A stretch of DNA of 64,000 nt from contig JAFWBI010000003.1 of NCBI GenBank assembly GCA_017507215.1, forward strand, positions 15,687 through 79,686, written 5' to 3'. The notes under the pieces are model-generated. The model had not been told where the DNA came from, ran no database searches, and saw nothing but the letters and a program-made list of their open reading frames with translations. A program made the position numbers and the translations under genes. Positions 4,232-64,000 of this stretch are shown piece by piece; the first letter of the stretch is position 1, and each line of letters starts with the position of its first letter. The stretch is from Clostridia bacterium. GTDB taxonomy: Bacteria > Bacillota > Clostridia > Christensenellales > UBA1242.

Positions 4232-4255
4232 TAAATAGGAGACAAAACTAGAGTT

Positions 4256-7200: not shown

Positions 7201-10200
7201 ACTCAATTTCTTAACAGAAAGAGATTTCTTAGAAATGCCACTTGTTGACTATATTGCAAAACTTTATAGAACAACTTCAAACGAACTTGTGACAAATGAA
7301 GATGGCGTTGTTGATGCTCTTTATAAAGAACTTTCACCATATATCTATGATATTGACACCATGATTGAAATGATTGTTAATAAAAATGGATTTAAACTTG
7401 ATAGTTCAATCGACCCAGCAAGCCCTAACAAGTTTGAAGTTTTCGATAATGTTTCAGAGTTTACATACACACCACTCCCTGGAACAAAAGTTAATGAGAT
7501 GTCAACTTGGACTAGATTTGATGAACTTTTATATGCACTCACTGGTTCATTCCAAACAAAATATACATCAAAAGTAATATATTACAACGATGATAATGGA
7601 ACGACAGATGATGCAACTGACGACACAGAGTATAAGTATTTCGTTGTTGGAAATTATGCTGTTGATATTTCTTCTGACGAAGTGGAAAACCCTGTAGACC
7701 CAGGCAATATGATTGATAATCCATTTAAGTCTACACTTGTAGATGGAAACGTTATCAATTCACCAGACACAAGTTTTGTTGTTGGAACTGACACAATTGA
7801 TGTGTTCTATCAAAATAGATACAAAGATTATGTCATCACAAAAACACCACTTGCTTATAAAAACACAGCAACAACATCTAACTTCGATAGAACATATAAG
7901 AATTTGACTGGTAACAGCATTGTTATTAACACAACATATAATTTATATGTTATTTCATATAATAATGAGCTTTATGTTGAAGTTTATAATGATGATACAA
8001 ACACTTACTATTATGTAAAAATAGATTCTTATTCAACAAACGCTATTGTTTCTGATGTTCAACCTGAAATTGTGAATGGATTTAAAGTTACTGATTATGC
8101 AAATAGTAAATTTAAATACACAAGGGGATTGTCATCAAGCACATATACAGCATTTGATATTGTTTATGAAAAGCTTATGGGGACAGCTTTATTAGTAAAC
8201 ACATCTGTTGAATACGATGTATTCTCAGTTAACGGAAAATTATATATTGAATTTAATAATTCTGGCGTTTTATATTATTTAGAAGTTACAGAAAGTTACG
8301 GCTCAACATTCTCAGTAATGAAGAAGTCGTCAATTAATCCTGTTGACACGGCAAAAGTTGCTGTTGTTGACCCAATGACTTTCGTGTCATTTAATAACAC
8401 TATTGACGAAGAAAGTAATGACCTTCAATTAAGTTCATTAAACTATTCAAAAATCGACGCAATCATTTATTCGATTACTGGCGAAATGAATTCAAAAACA
8501 TATTCAGTGTATAATCGCGGTGGGGAGCTTTATACATATGTTGATAATCAATATGTTAAGGTTAATGATGATTTAGTTGCTAATAAAAACACAGGTCATT
8601 TAGCTGAAAATGAAACAGAATTTCCAACAATCACGCTTAATCCAACAAATTATCAAATTCAAAGCGCACCTGTTTCAACATTATATGAAAACTATTATGA
8701 AAGTTTGATTGTTGAAGTTATTGGTTCAGTAATAACAGCAAGTGCAACTGAGGTTACTTATAGTTATGTTAAAAATGATGCAAGATTAGATATCACAAAT
8801 ATCTCACCATTTGCTTTAATCTTAGCAAAGAAAGGCTTAATCAACTTAAACACAACTGAAGAAGTTGAAATTTCTGGAACCGTTGTAACATCACAACGTG
8901 GCAGAAAATATTTCAAATTCAATGGTTCTCTTAATGGAAACCCACTTCAATTTAATGTGGATATTACAGATATTGCACACACATTTGTTGATGAAACAGA
9001 CACATCAAGTGTTAAACTTATCGATAATGCTGTTGCAAAATATGAAATGGTTTTAAGATATATGCTTTTGAACAATGGGGTTACAGAAAGCGAATATATT
9101 TCATCACTCACTTCATATAAGAATGACAGACAAGATTATTATGAAGTTCTTACAACTGATAAAAACACATTGAAAACTCCAATTGAAAAAACAGCTGGTT
9201 TTGATTTTAAAGAGCCAACTGCATCTGATTGGACAATCTATAACCTTTTGGTTTATAACCTTACTGGTTTTGCACCAGCAGAAGAAGCGATTGTTTACAT
9301 CGACGCTGCTGGTAACAGATATGTTGAAATCACAGATGGCATGAGCAGTGTTTATACTCAAATTTCACTTGGAACAAATATTATCTCAACATTGTTCACA
9401 AAGATTGAAACAACATCTGTAAACTATGAAAAGAAGAATGCAAGTGGTGAATATACTCCACTTGGAATTATTGCTTCAAAAGCAACAGATGTAGATAATG
9501 GCACAATCACTAAAGTTTTAGTTGATGATATGAATTTCTATTTCTTAGTTGACGGAATTGCTGGAACATATTCAGCTGTTTACGGACTTAATGAAGATGC
9601 TATTAGAAGCAAAAATACAGAAGGTCTTTATTCATATTACTTTGCAGGAAGTGCAACAGTTTCTAACTGGTCGGTGTTTGACACACTTATTGCACTCGTT
9701 GCAAACACAACATCTTCAAAAACATATCTTTCAAATATTTATATTTATGGCTCAAATGCCTACTATTTAATTAATGAAGATTTTGTTAACCTTTCAAAGA
9801 TTCGAGTGCTTACAAGCGCAGGGGTCGACAATATCTTTAATAGAATCGGTGACGATGCTCTTGATATCAATTATCAACTTTCACCAGCCGTTACACCACT
9901 TAAAAACTTTTACAATTCAACAACAGTAGGACATAAGGCTGTTACGGTTATTGATGACATCAACTCACTTGTTCCTGATGTTGATGACGATGATGATGAC
10001 GATGAAGAAAGCAACAGAATTTATTTCTCAGAAGATTTTGATATTAGTGATTTTTCAACTTGGACACATGCAGATTTGATTTTATATTACATGTTTGTTG
10101 AATATCCAAATTATTTCTCAAATGCATCTGTTACAATTTCAAACTTCCAACAATTGATTGAACAAGGATATGCTCCTGCATACGAATTTAATCACATTGT

Positions 10201-13200
10201 TGATGATGGTTTTGGCAACACTGAAATCGCAAAAGTTATTTGGGTTGGTGTTGATGAAACCGGTGGAACAGGCGTTGCTCTTAACAAGGCAGTGTTCCAA
10301 ACATATTACAATAAACTTGTTACAAACTTTGATAGCATTATTGAAGGAGATGTTCTTAAATATTCAATCGGAACAACAGCTCGTGACCTTCCAGCAACTT
10401 CAGACCCAGTGCCTCAAACAATGACAAGTTTCTATATCACAAAGAATATTGCATTAAACACAAATGATTTCATTTATGAAAACTATTTCTATTTCACACT
10501 TGAATATGGTTACATTAATAATCTTTTAGCTCAAGATTATAGTGCTATTGGTGCAGGAACAGGACAACTTGAAACTTCAATCAATATTGCACTTGGTCAA
10601 AATCTTGGAACAGACATTGAAGACAGAAAAGGATTTGATATTTCAAGACCTGAAACATGGACATGGCTTGAATTTATTGTAATTTACGAATTTTCAAATG
10701 TTTCAATCAGACATAATTTCTTTGAAGGTATGAGTTTTGATGATTTGTTTGTTGATAACTATGTTCCAGTGTTCACAAACGATAGAAATGAATTCATTAT
10801 TGAATTTAATGGAAATTATTACAACTTGAATGCGATTGATTATGTACATGATGGCGACGAAGCAAAACTATCAAGTGCAGAAATTGCTTCAATTATTGAG
10901 AGCAGAATTCAAGTTGAAGAAGATGATGGTGGAGATGTTCTCACAGTTGACGATGCAGTTCATGCAGGTTCAGACACCAAGTCGCAAATGAAAACACTTC
11001 GCTACACATATGAATATATGGCTAAAAAAGAAACAGATTATGCTCTTAACTACACAAAGACACCTGAAAGCATTTTATATTCATATAAAGATAGTCCAAG
11101 TGGCAAAAACTCAGCAACATTTACTTATATGAGCACAACATATAATTTCTATGTTGATGCTGATGGAAATGTTTCTTTTGACGGGGCAACAGAAACAATT
11201 TTAAGGGGAATCTTTGGAGCAAGTTTTACAGCTTCAGCTGATATTGCTGACGGAAAAATTACCATTGGTGGAAACACATTAAACTTTAAAGTTATTGAAA
11301 ATGGTACAATTTATTATTTAACACTTAACACGGAAATCATTCAAACTTATCAAATTAGTTTTGCAAGTTTGAACAGTGCTGGCAACTACACAATCACAAA
11401 TGTTGTTAGAATTGTTAACTGGCCACAAAAGTTAATGAATGATATTCAAACAATTTACCCAGACCTTAACTGGGCAACACTTCTTGCAACCGATGGTTGG
11501 CTTGATACACTTGGGGTATTCACATCAGCTCAAGCATCTGGTGAATATGAAAGTTCAGGAAACTCTGCGAACATCACTGCTGCAGGTTTGGTTCTTTCAG
11601 AATTCTTCTTATCTGTTATCAAAATGCCTGAAGATTTCACTTCAAGACTCGAATATGAATATATTCCTGTGTTTGATACAGACACAATCAAAGCTTTGAT
11701 GCTTTCAATGCTTGGTGAAGAAGAATATCACGACCTTTCAATGCAAGCAGAAGTGTTTATGGATATGTTCAACGAATTCTTCGTTCCAATCTTAGAAGAC
11801 ATTGCTAATGAACGTGGGGTTGAACTTGTTGAAGGAAAAGTTGATAACTTCTATATCAGCGTTTATAAAGCATTCCTTGCAACAGTTTTAATGTCTTCAG
11901 ATATGGCTGAATATTTCTATAAAATTGCAACAAGAGTTTACGCTCAATACACAATTTTAGACGCTCTTGCAAGTGCAAGTGGCGACTATGCAGCATATAG
12001 CAAATATATTAATATGCTTAGTGGAGCAGATGATAATGGCGTAACATCATTCAACTACGCAAATTTCCATCAGCTTACACTTTATGAAAATAGTTTCTCT
12101 GGAAACACAAATCCAACATTCACATTCAATATTCATTCAACAATCAATGGTCTTTATGGTCAAGGCTTAACATATAGAAAACTTTCAAATCAAGGTTATG
12201 CAGTTGTGAACTCAACTGGCAATGAAGACAAAAAAGTTACAAAAGCTGATGCTAAGAAAACATTTGAAAATGAAGACAACTTTGCAAAACTTGTTGATGA
12301 CCTTGATACAAAATATGAAGCTATTTATATTGATAGCCACTCAAGAGTGAAAGATAACAATGAAACGGGGTATTATTGTTATTTGTTTGACGCATATTGG
12401 TCAATCAGACAAAATCTTGATGACAGAAATATGCTCAGTACAACATATCTTGCAAACTATCACAAATATCTCTTAGGTGAAATCAAGAGATGGTATCACA
12501 TTTCTGATGTTAGCACGGAGCAAGCTTCAGCTTATATTCCAGACCAACAATCATATGAAATGAACATGTTGCTTTCAAGTGTTATGACAGAGCTTGCAGG
12601 TGTTTCAATTTATATGCCAGACGCAGACCAATTTGAAATCGAAGAAGGTGACAACCTTTGGGACGTTATTAAAGAAGCTTATGACACTGCAACTCAAAAC
12701 TCAGACCAAGTTTTGAAAACTACATTCAAAAACAACACAAATCTTTATAGTGATTATAGAAGAGCATATGAAAATGTATTTGATATGAGCAATAAGTTAA
12801 TCGGAAACGATGTAACTGGAATTTTAGGAATCATGAGCAAGTCTGAAAAAGGCGATACATCTGAAACCTATAGAGTTAAATTAACACAAACCGAAACAAA
12901 GAGAGTTGACGCGTGGAACAGACTTCTTTCTATGCGTGATGACCTTGAAATTTTGGTTAATGAACTTGGTTCTGTAATTGATGCAGCTCCTGGCTCTTAT
13001 GTTGAAGGAGATAATTCAAGGGGTTACAGAGACCCAAGCATTGATGATGGAAGATATGCGAAGGCTTATGAAGAACTTCAAAACTTCTACACAAACCTTG
13101 ATACATATATTTCAAATCAAAAAATAATTGATATTATTTATAAGACAAGTATCACATTCACACTTGCACAATTTGGTAAAAACTATGTAACCGAAGGATA

Positions 13201-15913: not shown

Positions 15914-15945
15914 AAAATAAAAGTAGTACGGGAGAGAAAAAATAG

Positions 15946-18900
15946 ATGGGGTTAATTAATTCAATTAGTACAGTTCCGATGACTCTGATGAAGTTTGCTT
16001 CATCTATTTTCTCATCTGTACCGAATTTCTTGGCTGCAAAGGTTGGTTTTGAAGGAGCTGTTTCTTCATTATTCAACGGTATTTCAAAAATAATGTATTT
16101 TGTGGCAAAGTGGATGCTTTATGTGCTTGATATATTATTTTCGTTTATAAGGCAGCTTAGTGGTTTGGAAATGAAATATGATTCACTTGAAAGTATGGTT
16201 TCAAAAGAATCCGATTTCGTGTTTAATATGTTGTTTACGGCAACAGACTTAATCAATCCAATCATAAGGAATTTAATTGGTCTTTCAATTGCACTTATTA
16301 TATTCTTTGCAATACTTGCAGTTGTAAAAACACAATTCAATTCATTAAAAAGCAAAACACCAGCAGATATTAAAGGTGTTTTAAAAGACACAGGTAGAGC
16401 ATTTGTTTTACTCATTGTTACTCCAATGATAGCGATTATGGGTATCGTTGGTTCAAACTTGTTGTTGCAATCGCTATATCGAGCGACGAACACAACAAAC
16501 TCAAACAGTATAAGTTCTTCGTTATTCTCAGTTTCTGCAACTTCTGCAAGTGCATATCGAATATATGCTCAAGAAGATATGAGAATACCGATAACATTTG
16601 ACTTTACTGAACACGCAGAAATTCTTGAATATTATAAAAAACATGCAATAACTAAAGAATTTAGAGAATATGTTAGTTCAAGCAAAAACCTGATTTATTA
16701 CTTGGGTTATAAACCATTTACTGAAGGTAAGTTTTCTGCATTTTCAACCATGAATGATACTAGGGTTATAGACCCGAACAGCACTCAGGCTGTTAATGCA
16801 AAAAACTATTATCAGGTTTATGACAGAACACAAGAAGCTTATGAAGCGTTAAATTCAACAACAGTAAATTCGTATAAGAAAATCTCAGCATATAGGCCAG
16901 AATATTTTGTTATGGCTGATGTAATTGATTTTGGTATTGAAACTTCAACAGTGATGTATTTCAAAACCATTCAAGAAGTGCTTGAAAGCATTTCACAAAC
17001 AGGTGATGATTATCTATTCAATTCAACAGTTGCGCTTTATAAGATTCAATTCTTAGATTCTGATTTAAAAGTGATAAAGCGTCAGTTTGAATCTGTTGAC
17101 ACAGCAACTGAAACTGCAAGCTCTTATGCTACTTATAAAGAAATTTATAAGGGAAGTTGGAGTGTGATTCGATTCACAAGCACTTATTATGATGTGAATG
17201 CCGAATCAGAACCAACTAAGAAAATGCAGATTCAATATAACCATGTCAGAGATGCTGTCGATGAAATTCAGGGCGCAAAATTCATTATGACTGTTCAAGA
17301 AAACTTAAAAAGAACAGAAACAAGACAAGAGTATGTTGAAGGTGCGTTAACAACAATAACCGAAGACGTTGTTCACACATATTACTATCCACTTACTATT
17401 GGACTTTCACAAGGTAATGAATTTGTATTTGATTCAGAATATATTCAAACTGGACAGCTTATTGCAGCAAAAGGTGTCTTCTCGCAAGAAAGATATGGAT
17501 ATCCTGTTCCGACAGCGATAAGAATTTCAGAAGATGGTTCAGAAGTTCAATTTTATAGACATGATATCGAATCGGTAACAGTTGGTGACTCAGACCAAGC
17601 TGGTACTGGTACGATGAAAGCAGAAGAAGATAAAGGTGGATTTTTGAGCTGGATTAAGAAATTATTTGCGTTCTTAAATCCAAATTTCGATGTTAAAATC
17701 GACCAAGATGCACTTGTTACGGCATATCAATATTCAGAAACAGTTGTAAATGTTTTGCCATCAGGTAAACTTAACGTGAGTTATATGTTTGAAGATGGAT
17801 TTAGTAACAACCTTTTGAACTTTGCAACTGGTGTTGTGAATGTTGTAAATGCTTCAAAAGGTGAAGAAAGTGTTGAGCAAATGGGCATTCACGGACTTCT
17901 TTTAGAAAACGTATTTATTCCAAATAAAATAAATATGATAATCTTAATCTGTGGTTCGTTAATGCTTGTTAAAATCGTATTCACTGCGATATTCCAGCTG
18001 ATAAATAGAGGATATGAACTATTCCTGACGATAATTGTTTATCCAACGGCATGTGCAACAATTCCAATTATGGATAAAGACGATGGCTATAAAACGTGGA
18101 TGACGACGTTTGTCAGCAGGCTGTTCTCGACGTATGGTTTGGTTTTGGGTTTAAACTTCGTTTTGATGTTGTTCCCAGTTATTGCTGAACTTGAAGTTTT
18201 CACGGCTGGTGAAATTGCACTTTCTAAACCAATTATGAGATTTAGAAACTTATTCAGCACAATTCGAACGGTTGCGACAATTGGTATCGTTCAAGCCCCA
18301 ATCAGTTTTGAATTCTTAGCAGGATTCTTAAACATGGTTGTTGTCATCATATTCCAACTTGTTGCATTCACACTGCTTGAAACTATTCCAGAAACAATCA
18401 ACAGAATCACAAAATCTGCTCCACTTAGAGGTGTTAACCCAATCGAATCAGCAAAGAAAGTTCTTAAAGTTGTTGCTGCTATCGTTAAGACGATTTCGTC
18501 GGTTGTCGGTGGTATCAAAGACTTTATTATGATTGCTGGTGATATTGGTGGAAAGCGTGAAGAATTCATCAGAAATGCAAAGATGAAAGTTAAAGGATTC
18601 TTGCCTGGAAGTGAAATTGTTGAAAGTGCTAAAGACTTTGGCAATATGCAAAAGAAGAAACATGAGCAGAAAGAAGCCATGAATGAGCTTAAAGATGCAA
18701 TGAATACTGCAAAAGTTTCGGGCAAAGATGAAAAAGATAAAACTCCTGAAGAAAAAGAACAGGATAAGAAGAGTGCAAAAGAGATTCAAGAAAAATTCAA
18801 TAAAGTTCTTGAAGCTCAAGATAACTATCAAAAAGCTATTGCAGACCCTAGGGGCAACCGTTTGGCTGAAGATGACAAACGTCGTGCTAATGAAAGAAAG

Positions 18901-20151
18901 GGTCTTGATGAAAACGGAAGAGTAAGTTCTAGAGATGAAGGTGATGATGAAACAGGTTTATCACACAGAACAAAACGTCAACTTCGAAAAGAAAAGAAGC
19001 GTGCAAGCAAGATTGTTAAGCGTCTTAAAAAAGAGCAGAAGTTGGCAAATAAAGGAAAACGTGGAGAACTTACAGAAGCTGAACAAGCATCTCTCAATAA
19101 ATACACTAAGATTTTAGAAAATGTAAATTCTGCTCAACAAGAACAAAAGAAAAACGGAAAAGAAATTTCTCAAGCTAAGAAAACCATTAAGAAACTCACC
19201 AAGAAACGTGGTGAAACTTCTTTAAATGCCGAAGAAGAAGCTCAACTTAAAGCTGCAGAAGCTACTGTTGAAGAGGGAGAACAAAGAAAAGTTGACAATA
19301 AAAAGGCTAGAACAGACGAAAAAGTTGAAAGAAAAAAAACAGCTAAAATTAGAAAGAAACAAGAAAAACAAGAACAAAAGAACAAAAAGATTTCAAGGGC
19401 ATTCAAGAGAACTGGTCTTGGTGCAAAGATTGCTCAAAAACGTTATATGAAAGACGTGAACAAACAATCTAATAAAATTCAAGAAGCTTTGAATGCAACG
19501 GGCTATATGGGTAAACGTCTTGAAGATATGACTGCCGAAGAAAGAAAGCAGACTATGGAAAGTGGAACATTGACCGAATCGCAAGTGGAAATGTTTAAAA
19601 CTTATGAAGCTTTGCAGACTCAAAAATCTGAAAATCTTGGTTATGCTGATGCTGTTAATGCTTCAAAGGCTGCTCAAGGTGCAAACGGTTTAAGAATGAA
19701 AAACAGGTTCAAGGCCGGAAGACGAAGTGGCAACAAAATTCAAAAGAAATTGATGCAAACTGAAGAAAGAGATGCTCAAGAACTTGAGAAAATTGAAGCC
19801 GAACTTGAAAGTCTTGGTGCTACTGGAGATAACAGTGGCGTGACTGCTGCAAACCTAGGCAGAGTTAGAAAGCTTAAACAACGCAGACAAGAGCTTCTTT
19901 CAAGAGAACAATTTAGAGATTATTGGTCTGGTAAAAAAGGCGCCGACGGAACACGAACTGGTGGCAGAAACACTAAGACTAAAAAAGAAGTTAAGAAAGA
20001 AAAGAAGGGGCTTCAAAAGCGTGGAAGAATTCAAAGGGATTTGGTTGAACAATACGGAACCGATATCTCAGAAGAAGAACTTTCAACCAGAACAAATCAA
20101 AAACTTGAAAAGAAAAAGAAGAAAAAGAAAAAAGATACTTCTGATTACTAA
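15946..20151 (+). CDS. 1401-aa polytopic membrane protein, paralog of the giant protein (shared N- and C-terminal membrane modules), with a ~520-aa Lys/Glu/Arg-rich C-terminal tail
   Basis: RBS GGGAGAG precedes the start, 32 nt after the giant ORF stop. Blocks alignable with the giant protein include YRIYAQEDMRIPITF vs YRYYAQQDRRVPIVI and PEYFVMADVIDFG vs EQYQVMADFVDYA. The TM segments NLIGLSIALIIFFAILAVV and FVLLIVTPMIAIMGIVGSNLLL also align. The second TM cluster spans nt ~17920-18400. From nt ~18540 the sequence is low-complexity and charged, ending KKKKKKKKDTSDY. Confidence 0.7.
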   Translation: MGLINSISTVPMTLMKFASSIFSSVPNFLAAKVGFEGAVSSLFNGISKIMYFVAKWMLYVLDILFSFIRQLSGLEMKYDSLESMVSKESDFVFNMLFTATDLINPIIRNLIGLSIALIIFFAILAVVKTQFNSLKSKTPADIKGVLKDTGRAFVLLIVTPMIAIMGIVGSNLLLQSLYRATNTTNSNSISSSLFSVSATSASAYRIYAQEDMRIPITFDFTEHAEILEYYKKHAITKEFREYVSSSKNLIYYLGYKPFTEGKFSAFSTMNDTRVIDPNSTQAVNAKNYYQVYDRTQEAYEALNSTTVNSYKKISAYRPEYFVMADVIDFGIETSTVMYFKTIQEVLESISQTGDDYLFNSTVALYKIQFLDSDLKVIKRQFESVDTATETASSYATYKEIYKGSWSVIRFTSTYYDVNAESEPTKKMQIQYNHVRDAVDEIQGAKFIMTVQENLKRTETRQEYVEGALTTITEDVVHTYYYPLTIGLSQGNEFVFDSEYIQTGQLIAAKGVFSQERYGYPVPTAIRISEDGSEVQFYRHDIESVTVGDSDQAGTGTMKAEEDKGGFLSWIKKLFAFLNPNFDVKIDQDALVTAYQYSETVVNVLPSGKLNVSYMFEDGFSNNLLNFATGVVNVVNASKGEESVEQMGIHGLLLENVFIPNKINMIILICGSLMLVKIVFTAIFQLINRGYELFLTIIVYPTACATIPIMDKDDGYKTWMTTFVSRLFSTYGLVLGLNFVLMLFPVIAELEVFTAGEIALSKPIMRFRNLFSTIRTVATIGIVQAPISFEFLAGFLNMVVVIIFQLVAFTLLETIPETINRITKSAPLRGVNPIESAKKVLKVVAAIVKTISSVVGGIKDFIMIAGDIGGKREEFIRNAKMKVKGFLPGSEIVESAKDFGNMQKKKHEQKEAMNELKDAMNTAKVSGKDEKDKTPEEKEQDKKSAKEIQEKFNKVLEAQDNYQKAIADPRGNRLAEDDKRRANERKGLDENGRVSSRDEGDDETGLSHRTKRQLRKEKKRASKIVKRLKKEQKLANKGKRGELTEAEQASLNKYTKILENVNSAQQEQKKNGKEISQAKKTIKKLTKKRGETSLNAEEEAQLKAAEATVEEGEQRKVDNKKARTDEKVERKKTAKIRKKQEKQEQKNKKISRAFKRTGLGAKIAQKRYMKDVNKQSNKIQEALNATGYMGKRLEDMTAEERKQTMESGTLTESQVEMFKTYEALQTQKSENLGYADAVNASKAAQGANGLRMKNRFKAGRRSGNKIQKKLMQTEERDAQELEKIEAELESLGATGDNSGVTAANLGRVRKLKQRRQELLSREQFRDYWSGKKGADGTRTGGRNTKTKKEVKKEKKGLQKRGRIQRDLVEQYGTDISEEELSTRTNQKLEKKKKKKKKDTSDY

Positions 20152-45557: not shown

Positions 45558-46400
45558 ATGGAAAGTTATATTGTTTTTATATTGGTTTCTTTAACTTTAG
45601 ATTATGTTTTATTCTTGTCACTCAAAAGACTATTTAGACTTGAAAGTGGTAATGTTTGTATTTTTTTATTGCAGATTTTAAATGTTTCAGCTGGCGCAAT
45701 TTTCTTAGTTTTAGAGTTAAAGTTTTATCAATTTTTGTTAATGAAAATTTTAGCCTATTTTCTCATATGTTTGCTTATAACCAACAATTATAAATTTTCA
45801 AAATTTATCCCATTTTTCTTTTTGTCACTTGTAATGATGTTTTCTTATTATGGGTTTTCAAAGTTTTTGGTTATGTTTGTTCGTGCGCTGTTTATTCAAA
45901 TTTTTAGCAAAAATTTATCTAAAATTTGTGATTTAGTTATAGTTTTTGCAATTTTATGTTATATTTTTGCGCTTTTTAAAATTATCGATGCCTTTTCAAA
46001 AAATAAAATATTAAACACTTTTTTAAGAAAAGTATCATTTTTTGCATTTGGAAAACATATAGAGTTTATGGGTCTATTAGATTCAGGAAATGTGCTTTAT
46101 GATTCAAAAACAAAACTGCCAGTCATCATTGTAAGTGTCTATTCGCTCAAAAAATATTTGCCGCAAAAAGATTATAAAAACATAACTAATTGCAACTATG
46201 ATAATTTAGCAGTGAGCCACTATTTGAAAGTTGTGACAATTGCAAATAAAAATTTCGATATTCCAATTTTTGATATAAAAAAAGTAAGTGTTTATTTTGG
46301 CACTGAAAAAAGAAGTTTCAGATGTGTGCTTGGAGTTGTAAGTCATAGGTTTGAAAGTTCTAATAGGTATGATTGTTTGCTTCACAGAGATTTTGTTTAA
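45558..46400 (+). CDS. spoIIGA: Sigma-E processing peptidase SpoIIGA
   Basis: Five N-terminal TM segments are followed by the aspartic-protease motif GLLDSGNVLYD. It lies immediately upstream of sigE. Confidence 0.8.
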   Translation: MESYIVFILVSLTLDYVLFLSLKRLFRLESGNVCIFLLQILNVSAGAIFLVLELKFYQFLLMKILAYFLICLLITNNYKFSKFIPFFFLSLVMMFSYYGFSKFLVMFVRALFIQIFSKNLSKICDLVIVFAILCYIFALFKIIDAFSKNKILNTFLRKVSFFAFGKHIEFMGLLDSGNVLYDSKTKLPVIIVSVYSLKKYLPQKDYKNITNCNYDNLAVSHYLKVVTIANKNFDIPIFDIKKVSVYFGTEKRSFRCVLGVVSHRFESSNRYDCLLHRDFV

Positions 46401-46409
46401 GGGGTGTTT

Positions 46410-47099
46410 ATGTTTAAATTTTTAGCAAATTTATTCAAGAGAAAAAATTACGTTTATTATATTGCAAATGGCTCTGAAATCTTGCCTGAAAAGCTTAGTT
46501 CAATCGAAGAGTTTAACTTGGTTGAAGAAATGAAAAATGGGAGTGATGAAGCCAAAAATCAGCTTATTGAACGCAATTTAAGGCTGGTTGTTTACACTGC
46601 TCAAAAGTTTGATAACACCGGTTCGAACATTGAAGATTTAATCAGCATCGGAACGATTGGGCTAATCAAAGCAGTGTCATCATTTGATAATTCAAAAAAT
46701 ATAAAAATGGCAACATATGCGTCAAGGTGTATTGAAAATGAAATTTTGATGCACCTTAGAAAAGTGTCTAAAATCAAAAAAGAAGTTTCACTTGATGAAC
46801 CATTAAACACTGATGCTGAAGGAAATGAGCTTTGTATTTCTGATATTTTGAGTTCTGAAACAGATGAAGTTACAGTTTCAATGGATAAGCAAGATGAAAA
46901 AGACGATTTGAAACGTGTGCTTAATGACCTTAGCGAAAAAGAAAAAGAAATTGTTTGCATGAGATATGGTCTTTCAGGAAACTCTGAAATGACACAAAAA
47001 GAAGTGGCTGATTATTTTGACATTTCACAGTCATATATTTCAAGGATTGAAAAGAAAATTTTAGATAAAATGAAAGTCGAAATTTTGAAACTGGCATAA
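46410..47099 (+). CDS. sigE: Sporulation sigma factor pro-sigma-E
   Basis: Near-identity to hallmark SigE blocks: IERNLRLVVYTAQKFDNTGSNIEDLISIGTIGLIKAV, ATYASRCIENEILMHLR and ISQSYISRIEKK. I prefer the ATG at 46410 (RBS AAGGGG) to the GTG at 46404. Confidence 0.9.
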   Translation: MFKFLANLFKRKNYVYYIANGSEILPEKLSSIEEFNLVEEMKNGSDEAKNQLIERNLRLVVYTAQKFDNTGSNIEDLISIGTIGLIKAVSSFDNSKNIKMATYASRCIENEILMHLRKVSKIKKEVSLDEPLNTDAEGNELCISDILSSETDEVTVSMDKQDEKDDLKRVLNDLSEKEKEIVCMRYGLSGNSEMTQKEVADYFDISQSYISRIEKKILDKMKVEILKLA

Positions 47100-47101
47100 A
47101 G

Positions 47102-47136
47102 AAAAGCGTGGCATTTTGCTACGCTTTTGTTGTTTT
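47102..47136. terminator. Bidirectional terminator between convergent sigE and sigG
   Basis: AAAAGCGTGGCA / TGCTACGCTTTT hairpin (one G-U) flanked by A-rich and T-rich runs. Confidence 0.6.
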
Positions 47137-47158
47137 GAGATATGAAGTTTAAGGTCTT

Positions 47159-47929
47159 TTATGTGACACTAGACTTGATTTCTTTGAGAGCGTCTTTTTC
47201 AAGTCTTGAAACTTGCGCTTGGCTGATTCCTATTGTATCTGAAATTTCCATTTGGGTTTTTCCGACATAATATCTTAAAAAGAGTATTTGTTGCTCACGT
47301 TTTCCAAGAGTTGAAAGTGCTTGCTTTAAAGCAGTTTTTTCTAATATTTTATCATCAGATGAACCGTCTTGAATTTGGTCCATAATCAGCATCGTGTCGT
47401 TGTCGTCATGAAAAACCGTGTCATAAAGTGAAAGTGGTTCGCTGATTGCGTCCATAGCATCGGCAATTTGTTTTTCGGGAATGCCTGTCACTTTTGAAAT
47501 TTCTTCAATGGTGGCTTCCTTGTTTGAGTTTTTCAAAATTTCTTCTTTTGCTTGCAACGCTTTATATGCAATATCTCGAATGCTTCGGGTAACCTTCATG
47601 GCGCTTGAATCTCTTAAAAACTTTCGAATTTCGCCAATAATCATCGGAACTGCATAGGTTGAAAATTTTACGCCAACCGACATATCGAAATTATCAATCG
47701 ACTTTAAAAGTCCGATGATTCCAACCTGAAAAATGTCATCAGAATTGTTTTTGTTTGACGAAAATCTTTTAACGATTGATAAGACCAGTCGCATGTTGTA
47801 AATCACAAATTGTTCACGTGCTTCAACGTCACCAGATTTCACTTTAAGCATCAAATTATTAAGTTCATCAGTTGTGCATTTTGGAAGGGTTGATGTGTCT
47901 ATGCCACAAATTATTACTTTGTTTGCCAT
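47159..47929 (-). CDS. sigG: Forespore sigma factor SigG
   Basis: The N-terminus NKVIICGIDTSTLP is the SigG signature (B. subtilis NKVEICGVDTSKLP). Other matching blocks are FQVGIIGLLKSIDNFD, KFSTYAVPMIIGEIRKFLRD, RSIRDIAYKALQ and GISQAQVSRLEK. The RBS AAGGAG is on the minus strand. Confidence 0.9.
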   Translation of the reverse strand: MANKVIICGIDTSTLPKCTTDELNNLMLKVKSGDVEAREQFVIYNMRLVLSIVKRFSSNKNNSDDIFQVGIIGLLKSIDNFDMSVGVKFSTYAVPMIIGEIRKFLRDSSAMKVTRSIRDIAYKALQAKEEILKNSNKEATIEEISKVTGIPEKQIADAMDAISEPLSLYDTVFHDDNDTMLIMDQIQDGSSDDKILEKTALKQALSTLGKREQQILFLRYYVGKTQMEISDTIGISQAQVSRLEKDALKEIKSSVT

Positions 47930-51218: not shown

Positions 51219-52391
51219 ATGAAGAGATTATCATGTTTTCTATTTAGTTTTTTGTTTATTTTTTTAGGATTTACAACTTCAACAACCTTAAATATTGACG
51301 TTGCGCATGGTGCAGACACTGCTAAAAATTATTATACAATTTATGCTGATTCATCAAAAAGTAAAGTGCTGTTTTTGAAAGGTGGCAACATAAATGTTGG
51401 TGACAATTATCTTTCGACGGACAACAAATATTATGAAATTGAAAGTGTTGATTCAAACAATAAAACAGCAGTTGCAAAGTTTTTGAATGATGAAAAATTA
51501 CCTAAGATTAAATTGAAAAGTGAATCAAAAAATGGTGAGCAAACTGCAAGTGCAAAAGTGACAAAAAAAGTTGGCGTTTATCACACTCACAATGACGAAT
51601 GTTATTTTACTCCAGATGGTATTGATTCGGTTTATGGAAAGGGTGGCATTCATGATGTTGGAAAAAAGTTTGTTTCAAGTTTAGAAGGGCTTGGAATTAG
51701 TGTGAACTATAATGAAGATTTGCACTTGCCACACAATTCTGGGGCTTACACAAGAAGTCAAGTGTCTGCATCTGAGCTTTTAGATTCTGGCGCTCAAGCA
51801 ATTTTTGACTTGCACCGTGATTCAACAAAAAGAAGTGAGTATTTAACTAAGGTCGATGGAAAGCAAATGAGTTCTGTGAGAATGGTGGTTGGAAAGTCTA
51901 GTGCAAACTATGAAGAAAATAAAAATTTTGCTTATATGATTAAGTCGTATGCTGATGAAGTTTACCCGGGGCTTATTAAAGATATTTATTTTGGCAAGGG
52001 AAATTATAATCAGCAGTTAACAAATAGAGCCATGCTTTTTGAAATGGGCTGTGAGAATATTGAAAAAGATTTGGTTTTAAAAACAACGCCTTATCTTGCA
52101 AAAGTGGTTGATGTTGTGCTTTATGGAACTGAAGATGCAAGTGAAAGTTCGGTTGCAGACCTTTCAGAAAATTCAAACGAAGATGTTGCAGTTGCTGGGC
52201 TTGTGAATAACTCTTCAAATGGTTCAGCAAACTCAAACAAAACACTTTATGTTACACTTGGTGTTTTGGGTGTTTTGTCACTGGTTTTTGCAGGTGTTAT
52301 GATTTTTTCGAAAAGGGCAAGATATAAAGTTGCAAGATTTTTCTCAGAAACATTTGCAGGAATTTTTGGAAAGAAGAAAAAAACTAATTGA
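51219..52391 (+). CDS. spoIIP: Stage II sporulation protein P (engulfment peptidoglycan hydrolase)
   Basis: An N-terminal signal/anchor is present. VGVYHTHNDECY, YTRSQVSASELL and FDLHRDS correspond to the conserved SpoIIP amidase-like blocks (xYHTHxxExY ... DxHRD). An extra C-terminal TM is present. Confidence 0.75.
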   Translation: MKRLSCFLFSFLFIFLGFTTSTTLNIDVAHGADTAKNYYTIYADSSKSKVLFLKGGNINVGDNYLSTDNKYYEIESVDSNNKTAVAKFLNDEKLPKIKLKSESKNGEQTASAKVTKKVGVYHTHNDECYFTPDGIDSVYGKGGIHDVGKKFVSSLEGLGISVNYNEDLHLPHNSGAYTRSQVSASELLDSGAQAIFDLHRDSTKRSEYLTKVDGKQMSSVRMVVGKSSANYEENKNFAYMIKSYADEVYPGLIKDIYFGKGNYNQQLTNRAMLFEMGCENIEKDLVLKTTPYLAKVVDVVLYGTEDASESSVADLSENSNEDVAVAGLVNNSSNGSANSNKTLYVTLGVLGVLSLVFAGVMIFSKRARYKVARFFSETFAGIFGKKKKTN

Positions 52392-55074: not shown

Positions 55075-55142
55075 ATGCTTTAAAAGCATAATATTTTTGA
55101 TAATATCATATATATTTGATAGAAGCAGTATACGGAGGTTTT

Positions 55143-56621
55143 ATGGAAAGCTTTGAAATATATAATGATATTGCAAAACGAACAAATGGAGATATTTATG
55201 TTGGTGTGGTTGGTCCGGTTAGAACGGGAAAATCGACATTCATTTCTAAGTTTATGCATTCGTCTATTTTAGATAATATAGTTAATGAATATGAAAAACA
55301 GAGAACAATTGATGAAATGCCGCAGTCTGGCGCTGGAAAAACGGTGATGACAATGCAGCCAAAATTTATTCCAAGTGAAGCTGTTGAAGTTAACTTTGGA
55401 AGTGATGCAACAGCAAGAGTTAGGCTTGTTGATTGTGTGGGTTATGCCGTTGAAGGTGCAAACGGATTTGCTGATGAGAATGGTCCAAGAATGGTGAAAA
55501 CTCCTTGGAGTGACTTGGAAATGTCATTTGAAGAAGCTGCAGAAATTGGAACTCACAAAGTCATTTCAGAGCATTCGACAGTTGCTGTTTTGGTTACAAC
55601 AGACGGAACGATTGCAGATATTCCAAGAGAAAATTATGTGAAATCTGAAGAAAGAGTTGTGGCTGAACTTAATGAAAATCATAAGCCATTTGTGATTGTT
55701 TTAAATTCTAGATTTCCAGAATCTGAAGATGTTTTGAAACTGGAAAAAGAGCTTGAAGAAAAATATAATGCACCCGTGCTCGCATATGATATTTCAAAAA
55801 TGGGTGCAGAAGAAATCACAAATATCATCAAGTCAATTTTGATGGAATTTCCAATTAAAGAAATCAATTTCAGACTTCCAAAGTGGATTATGGCACTTCC
55901 ATATGACAATGATTTTATTAAAAATATTATGAGTGTGATAAAACAAAATTCAGACCCATTGAAGAAGATGAGTGATTATTTAAAGCTTATAAATATTTTT
56001 AAAGAAAGTGAAGATTTGAAAGAACTTGAAGTTTTGAAAATGAATCTTGCAACGGGTGAAATTGATTTTGAAATTCCAGTTGATGATGCGCTTTATTACA
56101 AAACATTGAGTAAAGAATGTGGTGTTGAAATTAAAGATGATTTCTGTTTGATGAACTATGTTAAAGAACTTGTAAGCGCAAAAAGTGAATATGACAAAAT
56201 TAAGGCTGCGCTTGATATGGTGAAACAAACGGGGTATGGCATTGTGAATCCAACTGTTGGTGACATGGTTTTATCTGAACCAGAAATCATTACAAAAAAT
56301 GGAAACTCAAGCTTAAAGCTTAAAGCGACAGCTCCAAGTCTTCATATTATGAGAGTTGATGTTGATGCTGAAATTTGTCCAGCTGTTGGAAGTGTTAATC
56401 AAAGTGGTTCACTTGTGAGTTATATGCTTAATGAATTTGAAAATAATAAGGAAGACCTTTGGAATAAAAATATGTTTGGAAAGCCAATGAATGAACTTGT
56501 TAAAGATTCGATTGACACAAAACTGGCTGGTCTTCCTGATGAAGTTCAAACAAAAATGAGAAAAACACTTACAAAAATTGTTAATGAAAGAAAGGGTGGA
56601 GTTATTTGTATTTTGCTTTAA
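55143..56621 (+). CDS. spoIVA: Stage IV sporulation protein A (spore coat morphogenetic ATPase)
   Basis: MESFEIYNDIAKRTNGDIYVGVVGPVRTGKSTFI has the SpoIVA N-terminus and Walker A. The C-terminus is GGVICILL. I prefer the ATG at 55143 (RBS ACGGAGG) to the track start at 55116. Confidence 0.9.
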   Translation: MESFEIYNDIAKRTNGDIYVGVVGPVRTGKSTFISKFMHSSILDNIVNEYEKQRTIDEMPQSGAGKTVMTMQPKFIPSEAVEVNFGSDATARVRLVDCVGYAVEGANGFADENGPRMVKTPWSDLEMSFEEAAEIGTHKVISEHSTVAVLVTTDGTIADIPRENYVKSEERVVAELNENHKPFVIVLNSRFPESEDVLKLEKELEEKYNAPVLAYDISKMGAEEITNIIKSILMEFPIKEINFRLPKWIMALPYDNDFIKNIMSVIKQNSDPLKKMSDYLKLINIFKESEDLKELEVLKMNLATGEIDFEIPVDDALYYKTLSKECGVEIKDDFCLMNYVKELVSAKSEYDKIKAALDMVKQTGYGIVNPTVGDMVLSEPEIITKNGNSSLKLKATAPSLHIMRVDVDAEICPAVGSVNQSGSLVSYMLNEFENNKEDLWNKNMFGKPMNELVKDSIDTKLAGLPDEVQTKMRKTLTKIVNERKGGVICILL

Positions 56622-61901: not shown

Positions 61902-62972
61902 ATGGAAAAAACCTTTGGTGAATTTTTAACAGAAAAACGCAAAGAGAAAAGGCTTACTCAAAAAGAACTTTCAAAAATGCTTTTTGTGTCTGAGTCAACA
62001 ATCAGCAAATGGGAAAAAGATGTTGCACATCCTGATATTTCAATGCTTCCAAAGCTTTCTGAGATTTTTGGTGTGTCAGTTGATGAACTCGTGAATTCAA
62101 GCGTTGACGAAAAATTAAGGGAAGAAAAATCTCAAGCAAAAAAGTGGCGAGTTTTTTCGATGTCTTGGAGTTTGTTTTTTTATATTTCATATGGAATTGC
62201 GCTCGTTCCATGTTTCATTTGCAACTTGGTGATTGACAAAACTCTTTCGTGGTTTTGGATTGTGGCTTCAGCTCTCTTGCTTGCATTCACATTCACAAAT
62301 CTTCCAAAACTCATAAAGAAACACAAGCTTTTGATTTTGCCACTGTCAATGTATGCTGCACTTTGCATATTGCTTGGGGTTTGTTGTTTATACACCGGTG
62401 GTGACTGGTTTATGATTCCAGTTGTTTCAGTGCTTTTCGGAATGGTGATTATTTTTTGCCCGATTTACATTGCAAAATTTGAAGTGTTTAAAAAAGTAAG
62501 AAAATTTAATGATTTCGTGTCTATTGCTGTAGCCTTTGTGGTGTTGAATATTCTTCTTTTGTTTGCTGAAAACTATTCAGTTTCGCATGGCTACATTGGT
62601 CATTCGTGGTATTTAAAACTAGGTCTTCCAATTTCGTTATATTTCTATTTGGCGTTGAATTTGCTTTGTGCTGTTAGATTTTTGAAAGTTAATAAACTTT
62701 TAAAAACAAGCATTGTTTTGGGGCTTATTGATTTAGTTTGCTACATTCCGTCAATGTTTTTGAAAGTGGGAAATAAGAATATTCAAAAAGAGTTGATTGA
62801 TGAATCTAATATTTTAAAAGCTGATTTTTCAATTTGGACAGAATCAACCATTGATAACAATGTGCATTTAATTATATTTCTGACAATTTTAGGTGTGTCA
62901 ATTGCATTTTTAACGGCAGGCTTGATATTATATATCAAGAGAAAAAATAGAAACAAAGTTATAAATAAATAA
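61902..62972 (+). CDS. Membrane-bound XRE-family helix-turn-helix regulator (N-terminal HTH + ~8 TM segments)
   Basis: FGEFLTEKRKEKRLTQKELSKMLFVSESTISKWEKD is a canonical HTH_3 segment. The rest of the protein is polytopic. Confidence 0.75.
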   Translation: MEKTFGEFLTEKRKEKRLTQKELSKMLFVSESTISKWEKDVAHPDISMLPKLSEIFGVSVDELVNSSVDEKLREEKSQAKKWRVFSMSWSLFFYISYGIALVPCFICNLVIDKTLSWFWIVASALLLAFTFTNLPKLIKKHKLLILPLSMYAALCILLGVCCLYTGGDWFMIPVVSVLFGMVIIFCPIYIAKFEVFKKVRKFNDFVSIAVAFVVLNILLLFAENYSVSHGYIGHSWYLKLGLPISLYFYLALNLLCAVRFLKVNKLLKTSIVLGLIDLVCYIPSMFLKVGNKNIQKELIDESNILKADFSIWTESTIDNNVHLIIFLTILGVSIAFLTAGLILYIKRKNRNKVINK

Positions 62973-62996
62973 CATAAAAATTTTTATTTTAAAATA

Positions 62997-63025
62997 TTGA
63001 CAAATTAAAATTAAAGGGTTATATT
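62997..63025 (+). promoter_or_regulatory. Sigma-A promoter of the trp leader
   Basis: TTGACA (62997-63002), exactly 17-nt spacer, TATATT (63020-63025). Confidence 0.65.
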
Positions 63026-63058
63026 GAATTTATACAAAAACAAAAAGGAGACAAACTT

Positions 63059-63094
63059 ATGTTTAATTCATTTATTTGGTGGTGGCGTTTTTAG
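63059..63094 (+). CDS. Trp-rich leader peptide MFNSFIWWWRF (11 codons, three consecutive TGG)
   Basis: The RBS AAAAGGAG (63044-63051) lies 7 nt before the ATG at 63059. The codons TGG TGG TGG are at 63077-63085 and the TAG stop at 63092-63094. It lies between a consensus promoter and a terminator directly upstream of trpB. Confidence 0.65.
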   Translation: MFNSFIWWWRF

Positions 63095-63097
63095 GTG

Positions 63098-63233
63098 TTC
63101 ACAAAGCTTGTGTTTTGTGAATGCTTTTTCGTGGCGTCACAAAACATATGAAATGGATTAGATATTTGTAAATATAAATAAAATCTTAAAACCCGTTGGT
63201 ATGTTTTGTTTTAACATACAACGGGTATTTTTT
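63098..63233 (+). promoter_or_regulatory. Transcription attenuator: mutually exclusive RNA helices ending in an intrinsic terminator
   Basis: Segment 1 (TTCACAAA, 63098-63105) pairs with segment 2 (TTTGTGAA, 63114-63121). Segment 2 (TGTTTTGTGA, 63111-63120) alternatively pairs with segment 3 (TCACAAAACA, 63137-63146), a perfect 10 bp. Segment 3 (ACAAAACATAT, 63139-63149) alternatively pairs with GTATGTTTTGT (63199-63209, 11 bp with one G-U), which is part of the terminator's 5' arm. Confidence 0.6.
63191..63233 (+). terminator. Attenuator terminator upstream of trpB
   Basis: ACCCGTTGGTATGTT (63191-63205) pairs with AACATACAACGGGT (63213-63226), about 14 bp with one bulge, followed by ATTTTTT. 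Confidence 0.8.
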
Positions 63234-63264
63234 ATGCAAATTTTATTATAAGGAGATTTTATTT

Positions 63265-64000
63265 ATGAAAAAAGGATATTTTGGAGAGTTTGGTGGAAGT
63301 TTTGTTTCTGCTGAAATTCAAGAAGAATTAGACAAAATTGAAAAGGAATATAACAGATTAAAAAAAGATAAGGGATTTATTCGTGAGCTAAACAACTTGC
63401 GTAGAGATTATCAAGGAAGACCAACACCACTTTATTTCTGCAAGAATTTAACAGAAAGAGTTGGTGGGGCAAAAATCTATTTAAAGCGTGAAGATTTGAA
63501 TCACACAGGGGCTCACAAAATCAATCACTGCATTGGTGAAGCGCTTCTTGCAAAACACCTTGGCAAAACAAAGATTATTGCAGAAACTGGGGCTGGTCAA
63601 CATGGGCTTGCAATTGCAACAGTTTGCAGGGTTCTTGGGCTTGAATGTGAAATTCATATGGGCAGTGTTGACATCAAAAAACAAAGTGCAAATGTCAGCA
63701 AAATGAAAATGCTTGGCGCAAAAATTGTTGAATGCACAGCAGGAGACGGAACACTTAAAGATGCAGTTGACAGTGCGTTTGCGTCATATGCAGGGCAACT
63801 TGATTCAGCGATTTATTGCATAGGCTCAGTTGTTGGCCCACACCCATTTCCAACAATGGTTCGTGACTTTCAGTCTGTGATTGGAAAGGAAGCGAAAAAG
63901 CAAATCAAAAAGCACGAAAACAGACTTCCAGACTATGTTGTTGCATGTGTTGGTGGTGGCTCGAATGCAATGGGCATTTTTTATCCGTTCATTAAAGAAG
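63265..64000 (+). CDS. trpB: Tryptophan synthase beta chain (3'-truncated by the window edge)
   Basis: This ORF is not in the supplied track because it runs off the window. The translation from the ATG at 63265 (RBS AAGGAG) opens MKKGYFGEFGGSFVSAEIQEEL. It contains YLKREDLNHTGAHKINH (the PLP Lys), AETGAGQHG and ACVGGGSNAMG. Confidence 0.95.
   Translation, partial: MKKGYFGEFGGSFVSAEIQEELDKIEKEYNRLKKDKGFIRELNNLRRDYQGRPTPLYFCKNLTERVGGAKIYLKREDLNHTGAHKINHCIGEALLAKHLGKTKIIAETGAGQHGLAIATVCRVLGLECEIHMGSVDIKKQSANVSKMKMLGAKIVECTAGDGTLKDAVDSAFASYAGQLDSAIYCIGSVVGPHPFPTMVRDFQSVIGKEAKKQIKKHENRLPDYVVACVGGGSNAMGIFYPFIKE

Follow-up and report, generated by a model that had tools for sequence, protein, structure and literature searches.

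The 64,000-nucleotide (nt) stretch of Clostridia DNA analysed here, referred to as the window, carries close to its 3' end a short leader in front of the gene trpB, and this leader, a putative tryptophan (Trp) attenuator, is the subject of the present study; all evidence is computational. The leader and its gene are on the + strand. A sigma-70/SigA-type promoter (62997..63025) is composed of the -35 hexamer TTGACA (62997-63002), a 17-nt spacer and the -10 hexamer TATATT (63020-63025); it matches the consensus at 11 of 12 positions and is the top promoter-like site of 62600-64000, with transcription probably starting near 63032. It is followed by a Shine-Dalgarno (SD) sequence, AAGGAG (63045..63050), 8 nt 5' of the ATG of a short open reading frame (ORF; 63059..63094, ATG at 63059, stop at 63092-63094) of 11 codons plus UAG, which encodes MFNSFIWWWRF and includes three consecutive Trp codons (63077..63085). 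Further downstream are a terminator hairpin (63191..63226; pairs 63191-63198/63219-63226 and 63200-63205/63213-63218) and the U6 tract of an intrinsic terminator, as read from the sequence (63228..63233), situated 30 nt ahead of the trpB start codon. A simple terminator scan overlooked this terminator (63191-63233) because of the bulged G at 63199 and the AU-rich upper stem, and folding was therefore used instead; the minimum free energy (MFE) fold recovers it. The downstream gene (63250..64000, SD AAGGAGA at 63250-63256, ATG at 63265) continues past the window end and is trpB according to TIGR00263 (E = 5e-110 for the 245 aa inside the window). An earlier note on this DNA had described the consensus promoter, the 11-codon ORF with its ribosome-binding site, Trp codons and stop, and the terminator, and all of them were found at the places claimed. 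The family profile described below detected one copy of the leader in the window by nhmmer and no second copy.

Folding of the 211-nt leader gave an MFE of -61.9 kcal/mol versus -37.4 +/- 3.8 kcal/mol for 200 dinucleotide shuffles (z = -6.5), none of which (0/200) folded as stably. The MFE fold is a nest of three helices. P0 joins codons 1-5 of the ORF (63059..63073) to 63151-63165, P1 joins the last Trp codons plus CGU (GUGGCGUU, 63082..63089) to 63133-63140, and P2 (63093..63126) is a hairpin of segment 1 (63093-63107) with segment 2 (63112-63126). The 3' strands of P0 (63151-63165) and P1 (63133-63140) lie in a hub strand (segment 3, 63133..63165), which also holds the stretch 63137-63146 that can pair with 63111-63120 of segment 2 (helix 2:3) and the 5' strand of an antiterminator (63139-63149 and 63152-63156). 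The antiterminator partners, 63199-63209 and 63193-63197 respectively (11 + 5 bp), are the 5' arm and loop of the terminator (63193-63209), and its formation excludes the terminator. The calculated helix energies were -11.4 (P0), -9.3 (P1), -17.0 (P2), -10.7 (2:3), -14.9 (antiterminator) and -16.8 kcal/mol (terminator). In this folding model the hub strand thus has three alternative partners, i.e., the ORF through P0 and P1, segment 2, and the terminator 5' arm and loop, and the untranslated ORF itself is predicted to be an anti-antiterminator. The mutually exclusive helices 1:2, 2:3 and 3:terminator arm proposed earlier are supported by folding; the long-range helices P0 and P1, which covary, the 5-bp extension of the antiterminator and the re-coding of the family for other amino acids were not part of that proposal. 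A run of five U residues follows P2 (63123-63131 = GCUUUUUCG, U-run at 63125-63129), and GCTTTTT at this place is kept in most members of the family in the alignment used below. This U-run may make RNA polymerase pause, or act as a weak terminator, and so keep transcription in step with translation of the leader.

The influence of a ribosome was modelled at equilibrium, ignoring kinetics, on a transcript cut just 5' of the terminator 3' arm, with a 29-nt mask extending from -15 to +13 of the P site. Without a ribosome on the window leader, the antiterminator was predicted at 0.01 and P0, P1 and P2 at 0.89-0.99. When the A site was placed on any of the three Trp codons, the antiterminator rose to 0.79-0.91 and P2 stayed intact; when it was placed on the UAG, P2 was melted, 2:3 formed at 0.94 and the antiterminator was back at 0.01. 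These model states correspond to the logic suggested in the earlier note, i.e., 1:2 kept and segment 3 paired with the terminator 5' arm under Trp scarcity, and 1:2 opened by a ribosome at the stop codon, with 2:3 formed, under Trp sufficiency. A codon-by-codon mask scan of 29 distinct homologous leaders returned the same off/on/off pattern (antiterminator about 0 without a ribosome, >0.7 with the regulatory codons occupied and <0.5 with the ribosome at the stop) in 22-23 of the 29, and the regulatory codons, whether W, H, R or C, were always at the 3' edge of the permissive zone.

Relatives of the window TrpB with 70-98% identity were traced to their contigs through the protein alone, without use of the RNA. 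A homologous leader with promoter, SD, short ORF, helices and terminator is present upstream of nine of the 11 TrpB orthologues at >=70% identity and absent upstream of trpB in the remaining two (L091 and L130). The leader peptide is identical with that of the window in L081 (TrpB 98% identical) and reads MFNSFIWWWQEA in L082 (85%), MFNSFIWWRW in L083 (81%), MIYSFIWWCK in L001 (76%), MFNSFSWWRNN in L085 (75%), MFSSFIWWRK in L086 (73%), MFSSFIWWRG in L131 (72%), MFYSFIWWRKIN in L128 (71%) and MTKNSFTWRWL in L089 (71%). The leader is also found in L009 (TrpB 64%), with the peptide MFFSRNWWRG; L001 and L009 came from a scan of a genome collection. A promoter of the form TTGAC(A/T)-17-TAnnnT stands at the same place in all of these leaders, those of L001, L009, L082, L083, L085, L086, L089, L128 and L131 among them. 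The full-length TrpB orthologue in L081 has 387 aa. In none of the loci examined was trpA found 3' of trpB. The gene is solitary in L081, L082, L089, L128 and L131 and is followed by trpS in L083 (3669-4664), L085 (4166-5155) and L086 (4173-5168). As trpB without trpA points to indole salvage, the lone TrpB is probably used for this purpose, and the hosts are likely Trp auxotrophs of the gut, where indole is abundant.

The leader was also searched for through its RNA. A single metagenome scan was run with a pattern that comprised segment 2, segment 3 and the antiterminator 3' strand and did not include the ORF, and 35 loci were obtained, nearly all of which have a short SD-preceded ORF about 50-56 nt 5' of segment 2. 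Altogether, the metagenomes, of the gut and of other origin, yielded 29 distinct homologous leaders. Every one of them (29/29) keeps an SD-like site 5-14 nt 5' of the ATG, an ORF of 9-12 codons, and a stop codon located 2-9 nt 5' of the segment 1 core, and a T-run follows the terminator stem in all aligned members. WW or WWW stands at the same position in every member linked to trpB or trpS. The trpS assignment is based on TIGR00233 (338 bits, above cut-off), and this gene is directly behind the WW leader in L104, L105, L114, L117, L120, L123 and L124; the leader peptide there stands in for the T-box usual at trpS in Firmicutes. In other members the codon run is replaced. An Arg-type leader, MFNSFTCWRRRR (AGA CGC CGC CGU, RRRR), is ahead of a monocistronic ArgE/DapE-like M20 deacylase gene. 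His-type leaders with CAU/CAC pairs (MFNSFNMWHHK, MFNSFVMWHLHK, MFNSFNMWHWHN, MFNSFILWHHDS and MIKLMHHRW) precede monocistronic genes of the same kind wherever the downstream sequence is readable (L107 is cut off), and the M20 deacylases behind the His and Arg leaders share 43-59% mutual identity. A Cys-type leader, MFNLCICLCIK, is ahead of a GNAT acetyltransferase gene. These re-coded leaders are found in L098 (1451-1644), L103, L107, L108 (10088-10266), L111 (2029-2211), L118 (201-381) and L121 (1030-1206). Since the codon run is swapped on the same RNA and synonymous codons are used, which would be hard to explain otherwise, the ORF is probably decoded.

Compensatory covariation in the orthologous leaders, which the earlier note had named as a check along with the presence of the ORF there, was found in P0, P1 and the terminator. 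In a MAFFT alignment (A1) of 27 distinct leaders, 80.5% of the cells of the 'off' structure were paired versus 38.6-48.8% when the partners were slid by 1-3 columns; 17 pairs had compensatory changes and none of 500 shuffles reached the observed score. For P0, 86% of the cells were paired and seven of 15 pairs were compensatory (e.g., UA 17 / CG 6; AU 17 / UA 5 / GU 5). The apparent conservation of MFNSF is accounted for by this RNA pairing, as both strands change together in the subfamily with MFFS.. peptides. P2 was paired in 90% of the cells and four pairs at the base of the terminator stem were compensatory. The counts for P1 by MAFFT columns (60% and 17% paired, helices 2-3) are misleading because leaders with WWW and with WW are out of register; P1 was therefore analysed separately, in a helix-anchored way and with a partner-swap control. 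With the CRC of segment 3 as the anchor, 24 of the 29 members were found to have a P1 helix of >=6 bp starting at codon 7-9, with CG 18 / AU 2 / UA 1 / UG 1 at pair 5 and GC 16 / AU 4 / GU 1 / UG 1 at pair 6, and with strand variants such as GUGGCGUU/GGCGUCAC, GUGGUGCA/UGCAUCAC, GUGGCAU/AUGUCAC and GUGAAAU/AUUUCAC. The members' own partners fit better than swapped ones, the observed value being reached in 2 of 10000 permutations. Folded one by one to their MFE structures, most members have the P0 > P1 > P2 nest. The 2:3 helix was paired in 100% of the cells, with one UA-to-CG switch in six sequences, and the antiterminator in 97%. The divergent leader of L089, found independently of the pattern, has a complementary antiterminator of different sequence.

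Based on these results, it is likely that the element is a ribosome-mediated (leader-peptide) attenuator that senses charged tRNA-Trp and controls the solitary trpB. Its anatomy, its conservation and covariation, the match between regulatory codons and downstream gene, and the thermodynamic plausibility of three states are backed directly. The mechanism would be as follows. When the ORF carries no ribosome, either untranslated or with the ribosome gone, P0 and P1 would pair the hub around P2, the terminator would fold, and transcription would end at the U-tract, so that the default state is off. When Trp is scarce, a ribosome with a Trp codon in its A site would cover the 5' strands of P0 and P1 and leave P2 intact; the freed hub could then pair with the terminator 5' arm and loop, and RNA polymerase would read through into trpB. 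When Trp is sufficient, the ribosome would reach the UAG, which abuts P2, and unzip segment 1; the released segment 2 would pair with the hub (2:3) as a decoy, and the terminator would fold. It is implied here that the leader ORF is translated, which we infer from the data given above. The roles of P2 with its U-run as a pause site and of 2:3 as a decoy are proposed with less confidence than the attenuator itself.

Several results weigh against this interpretation. With the complete terminator present, the terminator dominates at equilibrium in every ribosome state (0.90), and hence the switch must be kinetic and take place during transcription; by analogy with classical attenuators, the choice of fold would be made kinetically as the leader is transcribed. 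The model predicts antitermination for a ribosome on nearly every codon of the ORF, and the Trp specificity therefore rests only on codon identity. The off/on/off pattern is missing by the equilibrium model in six of the 29 leaders (L009, L094, L109, L111, L112 and L089), and these members are a real weakness of the thermodynamic argument. Three of them (L009, L094 and L109) belong to the GC-richer MFFS.. subfamily; in L009 the preferred equilibrium fold is 2:3 when a ribosome occupies the Trp codons, and a pairing of SD with ORF when there is none. In this subfamily, codons 2-4 UUCUUUUC are the complement of the SD region GAGGAGAAGAA (L009:3789-3830), and the two are paired in the ribosome-free fold. 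This predicted pairing could add a translational layer in the subfamily or be a folding artefact. Moreover, the search pattern that yielded the 35 loci prescribed the antiterminator core as well as segments 2 and 3, so their conservation there is not independent, and the pairing of 2:3 and the antiterminator is weak evidence, as most of the sequences were selected by a pattern fixing those strands. RNAalifold on A1 found P2 and the terminator base only, and P0 and P1 are therefore unsupported by this program alone. Finally, Bacillota have been classed as having 'runaway transcription', in which RNA polymerase outpaces the ribosomes (PMC13323073), and synchrony of ribosome and polymerase over a leader of about 170 nt is therefore less obvious.

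The regulators usual for trp genes in Firmicutes are the T-box and TRAP, and neither was recognised in the leader. Rfam 15 gave no match to the leader in the window at gathering thresholds, and a search of 62900-63400 at E values up to 10 gave noise only (best mir-95, E = 0.39). No covariance-model match was obtained for the T-box (RF00230), Trp_leader (RF00513), His_leader, the Leu/phe leader or other curated leader families, and the T-box motif GGUGGNACC is not present in the leader. Among 20 related loci searched at gathering thresholds, nothing matched the leader element, the leader relatives matching tRNAs only; the same search returned T-boxes of 94-112 bits in L016, L029, L034 and L061 and thus served as its own positive control. 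For TRAP, the criterion was an array of 9-11 (G/U)AG triplets with 2-3 nt spacing that overlaps the antiterminator; only four isolated triplets were found in 63026-63264, the longest properly spaced chain being 1. T-box leaders do lie immediately 5' of trpB in other Firmicutes metagenome-assembled genomes (MAGs), namely in L016 (3490-3723) and L029 (3686-3933), which indicates that both solutions occupy one slot in the phylum. It has accordingly been considered that a factor acting in trans, such as uncharged tRNA-Trp bound in a T-box-like manner, a TRAP-like protein or a small molecule, senses the leader and that the mini-ORF is incidental. The standing of T-box and TRAP as the textbook regulators, the T-boxes in the two loci above and the UGGUGG run, which could in principle bind a factor, speak for this. 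However, besides the negative searches, all 29 members retain SD, ATG, frame and stop, and the regulatory codons swap to His, Arg and Cys in step with the downstream gene and with use of synonymous codons, so that this explanation is judged very improbable.

Three further explanations differ from the proposed attenuator to varying degrees. The closest of them accepts the attenuator but reduces it to two states: only the pairing of P0 and P1 with the hub would compete with the antiterminator, P2 would be a pause or spacer, and 2:3 would be incidental, arising from the similarity of segments 1 and 3. P0 and P1 alone would indeed explain the ribosome-free off state and the stalled on state, the U-run at 63125-63129 and the conserved GCTTTTT resemble a pause signal, and the covariation of 2:3 comes from a single position and from sequences chosen by the pattern. 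On the other hand, the complete pairing of 2:3 extends to the loci retrieved by TrpB alone; at the variable position segment 2 is matched more strictly by segment 3 (UA 20, CG 6, UG 1) than by segment 1 (GU 13, AU 8, GC 6); in every member the distance of the stop codon from the segment 1 core stays within 2-9 nt; a ribosome at the stop codon gives 2:3 at 0.94; and 2:3 is the MFE choice in L009 and L118. A two-state device is thus regarded as improbable. Far less credence is given to a TnaC-like device with inverted logic, in which the nascent peptide MFNSFIWWW.. would sense free Trp and stall at high Trp. The N-terminus MF(N/S)SF, kept across many members, speaks for it, but MFNSF is explained by P0, the peptide change in the MFFS.. 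subfamily being matched in the partner strand (UA to CG, AU to UA); furthermore, His, Arg and Cys codons are accommodated by this scaffold as well, and it would be physiologically senseless to turn trpB on when Trp is plentiful. It is most improbable, too, that there is no regulator at all and that a chance ORF lies beside a terminator that serves a small RNA or the gene upstream. Hexamers resembling a promoter occur frequently in DNA this rich in AT (7 found versus 5.6 expected), and the bare string TGGTGGTGG is not rare, with seven occurrences in the window, mostly in intragenic Gly-type runs; the triplet alone is uninformative and it is the context that carries the meaning. Against chance stand the z of -6.5 for the fold, the leader's own conserved promoter after the stop of the upstream gene at 62972, and the constant placement, with a promoter on one side and trpB, trpS or another amino-acid gene on the other, in 29 distinct sequences that show compensatory changes. 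The leader-peptide attenuator with charged tRNA-Trp as its signal remains the preferred explanation.

A broader reading is that the leader belongs to a cassette for amino-acid sensing that can be re-programmed and has spread in Clostridia and Erysipelotrichales of the gut that are uncultured, with one scaffold re-coded for at least Trp, His, Arg and Cys, and with T-boxes displaced at trpB and trpS. This is put forward tentatively, and we incline somewhat against it. If it were true, the leader codons would reveal the physiological substrates of salvage enzymes that are so far uncharacterised (indole for a lone TrpB, His or Arg derivatives for M20 deacylases, and a link to Cys for a GNAT enzyme), and tight timing of ribosome and polymerase would operate in a phylum regarded as runaway-transcribing. 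The re-coded relatives suggest that unannotated salvage enzymes may be assigned substrates from the codons of their leaders, and the leader family could be added to genome annotation and would be a natural test bed for transcription-translation timing.

The host of the window (33% GC) had been taken for a sporulating Firmicute, and the gene content is consistent with this. SpoIIP and SpoIVA score above the NCBIfam cut-offs, and SpoIIGA-like and SigE-like genes (+ strand) as well as a SigG-like gene are also in the window; the SigG-like gene adjoins the SpoIIGA-/SigE-like pair on the opposite strand, which is an unusual orientation. These sporulation genes lie within 45558-47929, 51219-52391 and 55116-56621. 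A cell-division and cell-wall cluster contains genes for a SpoVD-like penicillin-binding protein, murE, murA and ftsZ, and tig and clpX are present. The nearest public MAGs are labelled Clostridia bacterium (sheep colon, chicken), and one relative is labelled Erysipelotrichales. A block resembling an integrative and conjugative element (ICE) occupies 1547-20151; its VirB4 ATPase belongs to the Mbov_0397 (mycoplasma ICE) family (595 bits, above cut-off), and ORFs of 3885 aa (4256-15913) and 1401 aa (15946-20151) come after it. The gene immediately 5' of the leader (61902-62972) encodes 356 aa with an N-terminal XRE-type helix-turn-helix (NCBIfam, residues 2-77), and its hydrophobic remainder resembles a multi-pass membrane domain by eye. 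This gene is syntenic in L081 and not in L082 and is therefore probably unrelated to trpB control. An insertion of the cassette between paralogues was also considered for L081, where two 356-aa genes flank trpB, and was ruled out as the two are unrelated.

The family profile detected no copy of the leader by nhmmer in the remaining 78 genome loci that TrpB similarity had returned. Short WW ORFs do occur upstream of lone trpB in L003, L005, L007, L010 (about 270 nt upstream), L004, L022, L027 and L028. They end in ..NTAWWTAHxxG* in Patescibacteria/candidate phyla radiation (CPR) MAGs and in ..WWC* in alphaproteobacterial MAGs, and given the absence of an nhmmer match they are unrelated in sequence to the window leader. 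After the CPR ORFs comes a terminator, and ACCCAC in its 5' arm is the complement of GUGGGU at the ORF end. These WW ORFs look like independent Trp attenuators.

Ribosome-mediated attenuation is rated rare in Firmicutes (PMC2965389, PMC9413887), in agreement with the earlier note, which had called a leader-peptide attenuator uncommon here. Leader-peptide His leaders are documented or predicted in the Bacillus cereus group, Peptostreptococcaceae and Erysipelotrichales (PMC9413887, PMC2965389), and the ilv-leu leader of Staphylococcus aureus is a leader-peptide attenuator (PMC5794164). The mechanism and the phylum of these systems are the same as proposed here; the amino acids and genes differ, as they also do for the leu/phe leader, and none of the three families matched the window leader in Rfam 15. 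The Lactococcus leu/phe leader is a leader-peptide attenuator in which one scaffold is used with different codons. In the searchable literature, which did not extend to subscription reviews on trp regulation in Gram-positive bacteria, no description of a Trp-specific leader-peptide attenuator in Firmicutes, or of this family, was found. The window leader belongs to a new family that is absent from Rfam 15; its mechanism is of the textbook kind and unusual in Firmicutes.

The closest functional counterpart is the trpL/trp attenuator of Escherichia coli. As there, a short ORF with tandem Trp codons and an intrinsic terminator precede the structural genes, the untranslated ORF region pairs with the antiterminator strand, and a stalled ribosome would free this strand for the terminator 5' arm. 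However, there is no sequence or covariance-model similarity to RF00513, and the window leader has an extra hairpin, P2, between the ORF and the hub. A ribosome at the stop codon would here act indirectly, by release of a decoy strand, and would not cover the antiterminator strand itself. The host is a Clostridia-like spore-former, and the target is a lone trpB (or trpS) and not trpEDCBA. The his, leu and thr leaders of enterobacteria are chains of alternating hairpins (A:B, B:C, C:D, D:E, E:F). They share with the window leader a relay of mutually exclusive helices, the fold at one end being set by where the ribosome stands at the other; the window leader differs in having one hub with three partners and in using the ORF start, through P0, as part of the anti-antiterminator. 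With the T-box and TRAP systems it shares the regulatory slot and a choice between terminator and antiterminator that reports the Trp supply, but the sensor proposed here is the translating ribosome and not a tRNA-binding RNA or an 11-mer protein. A Trp leader-peptide family in spore-forming gut Clostridia would thus represent a third solution to Trp sensing for Firmicutes.

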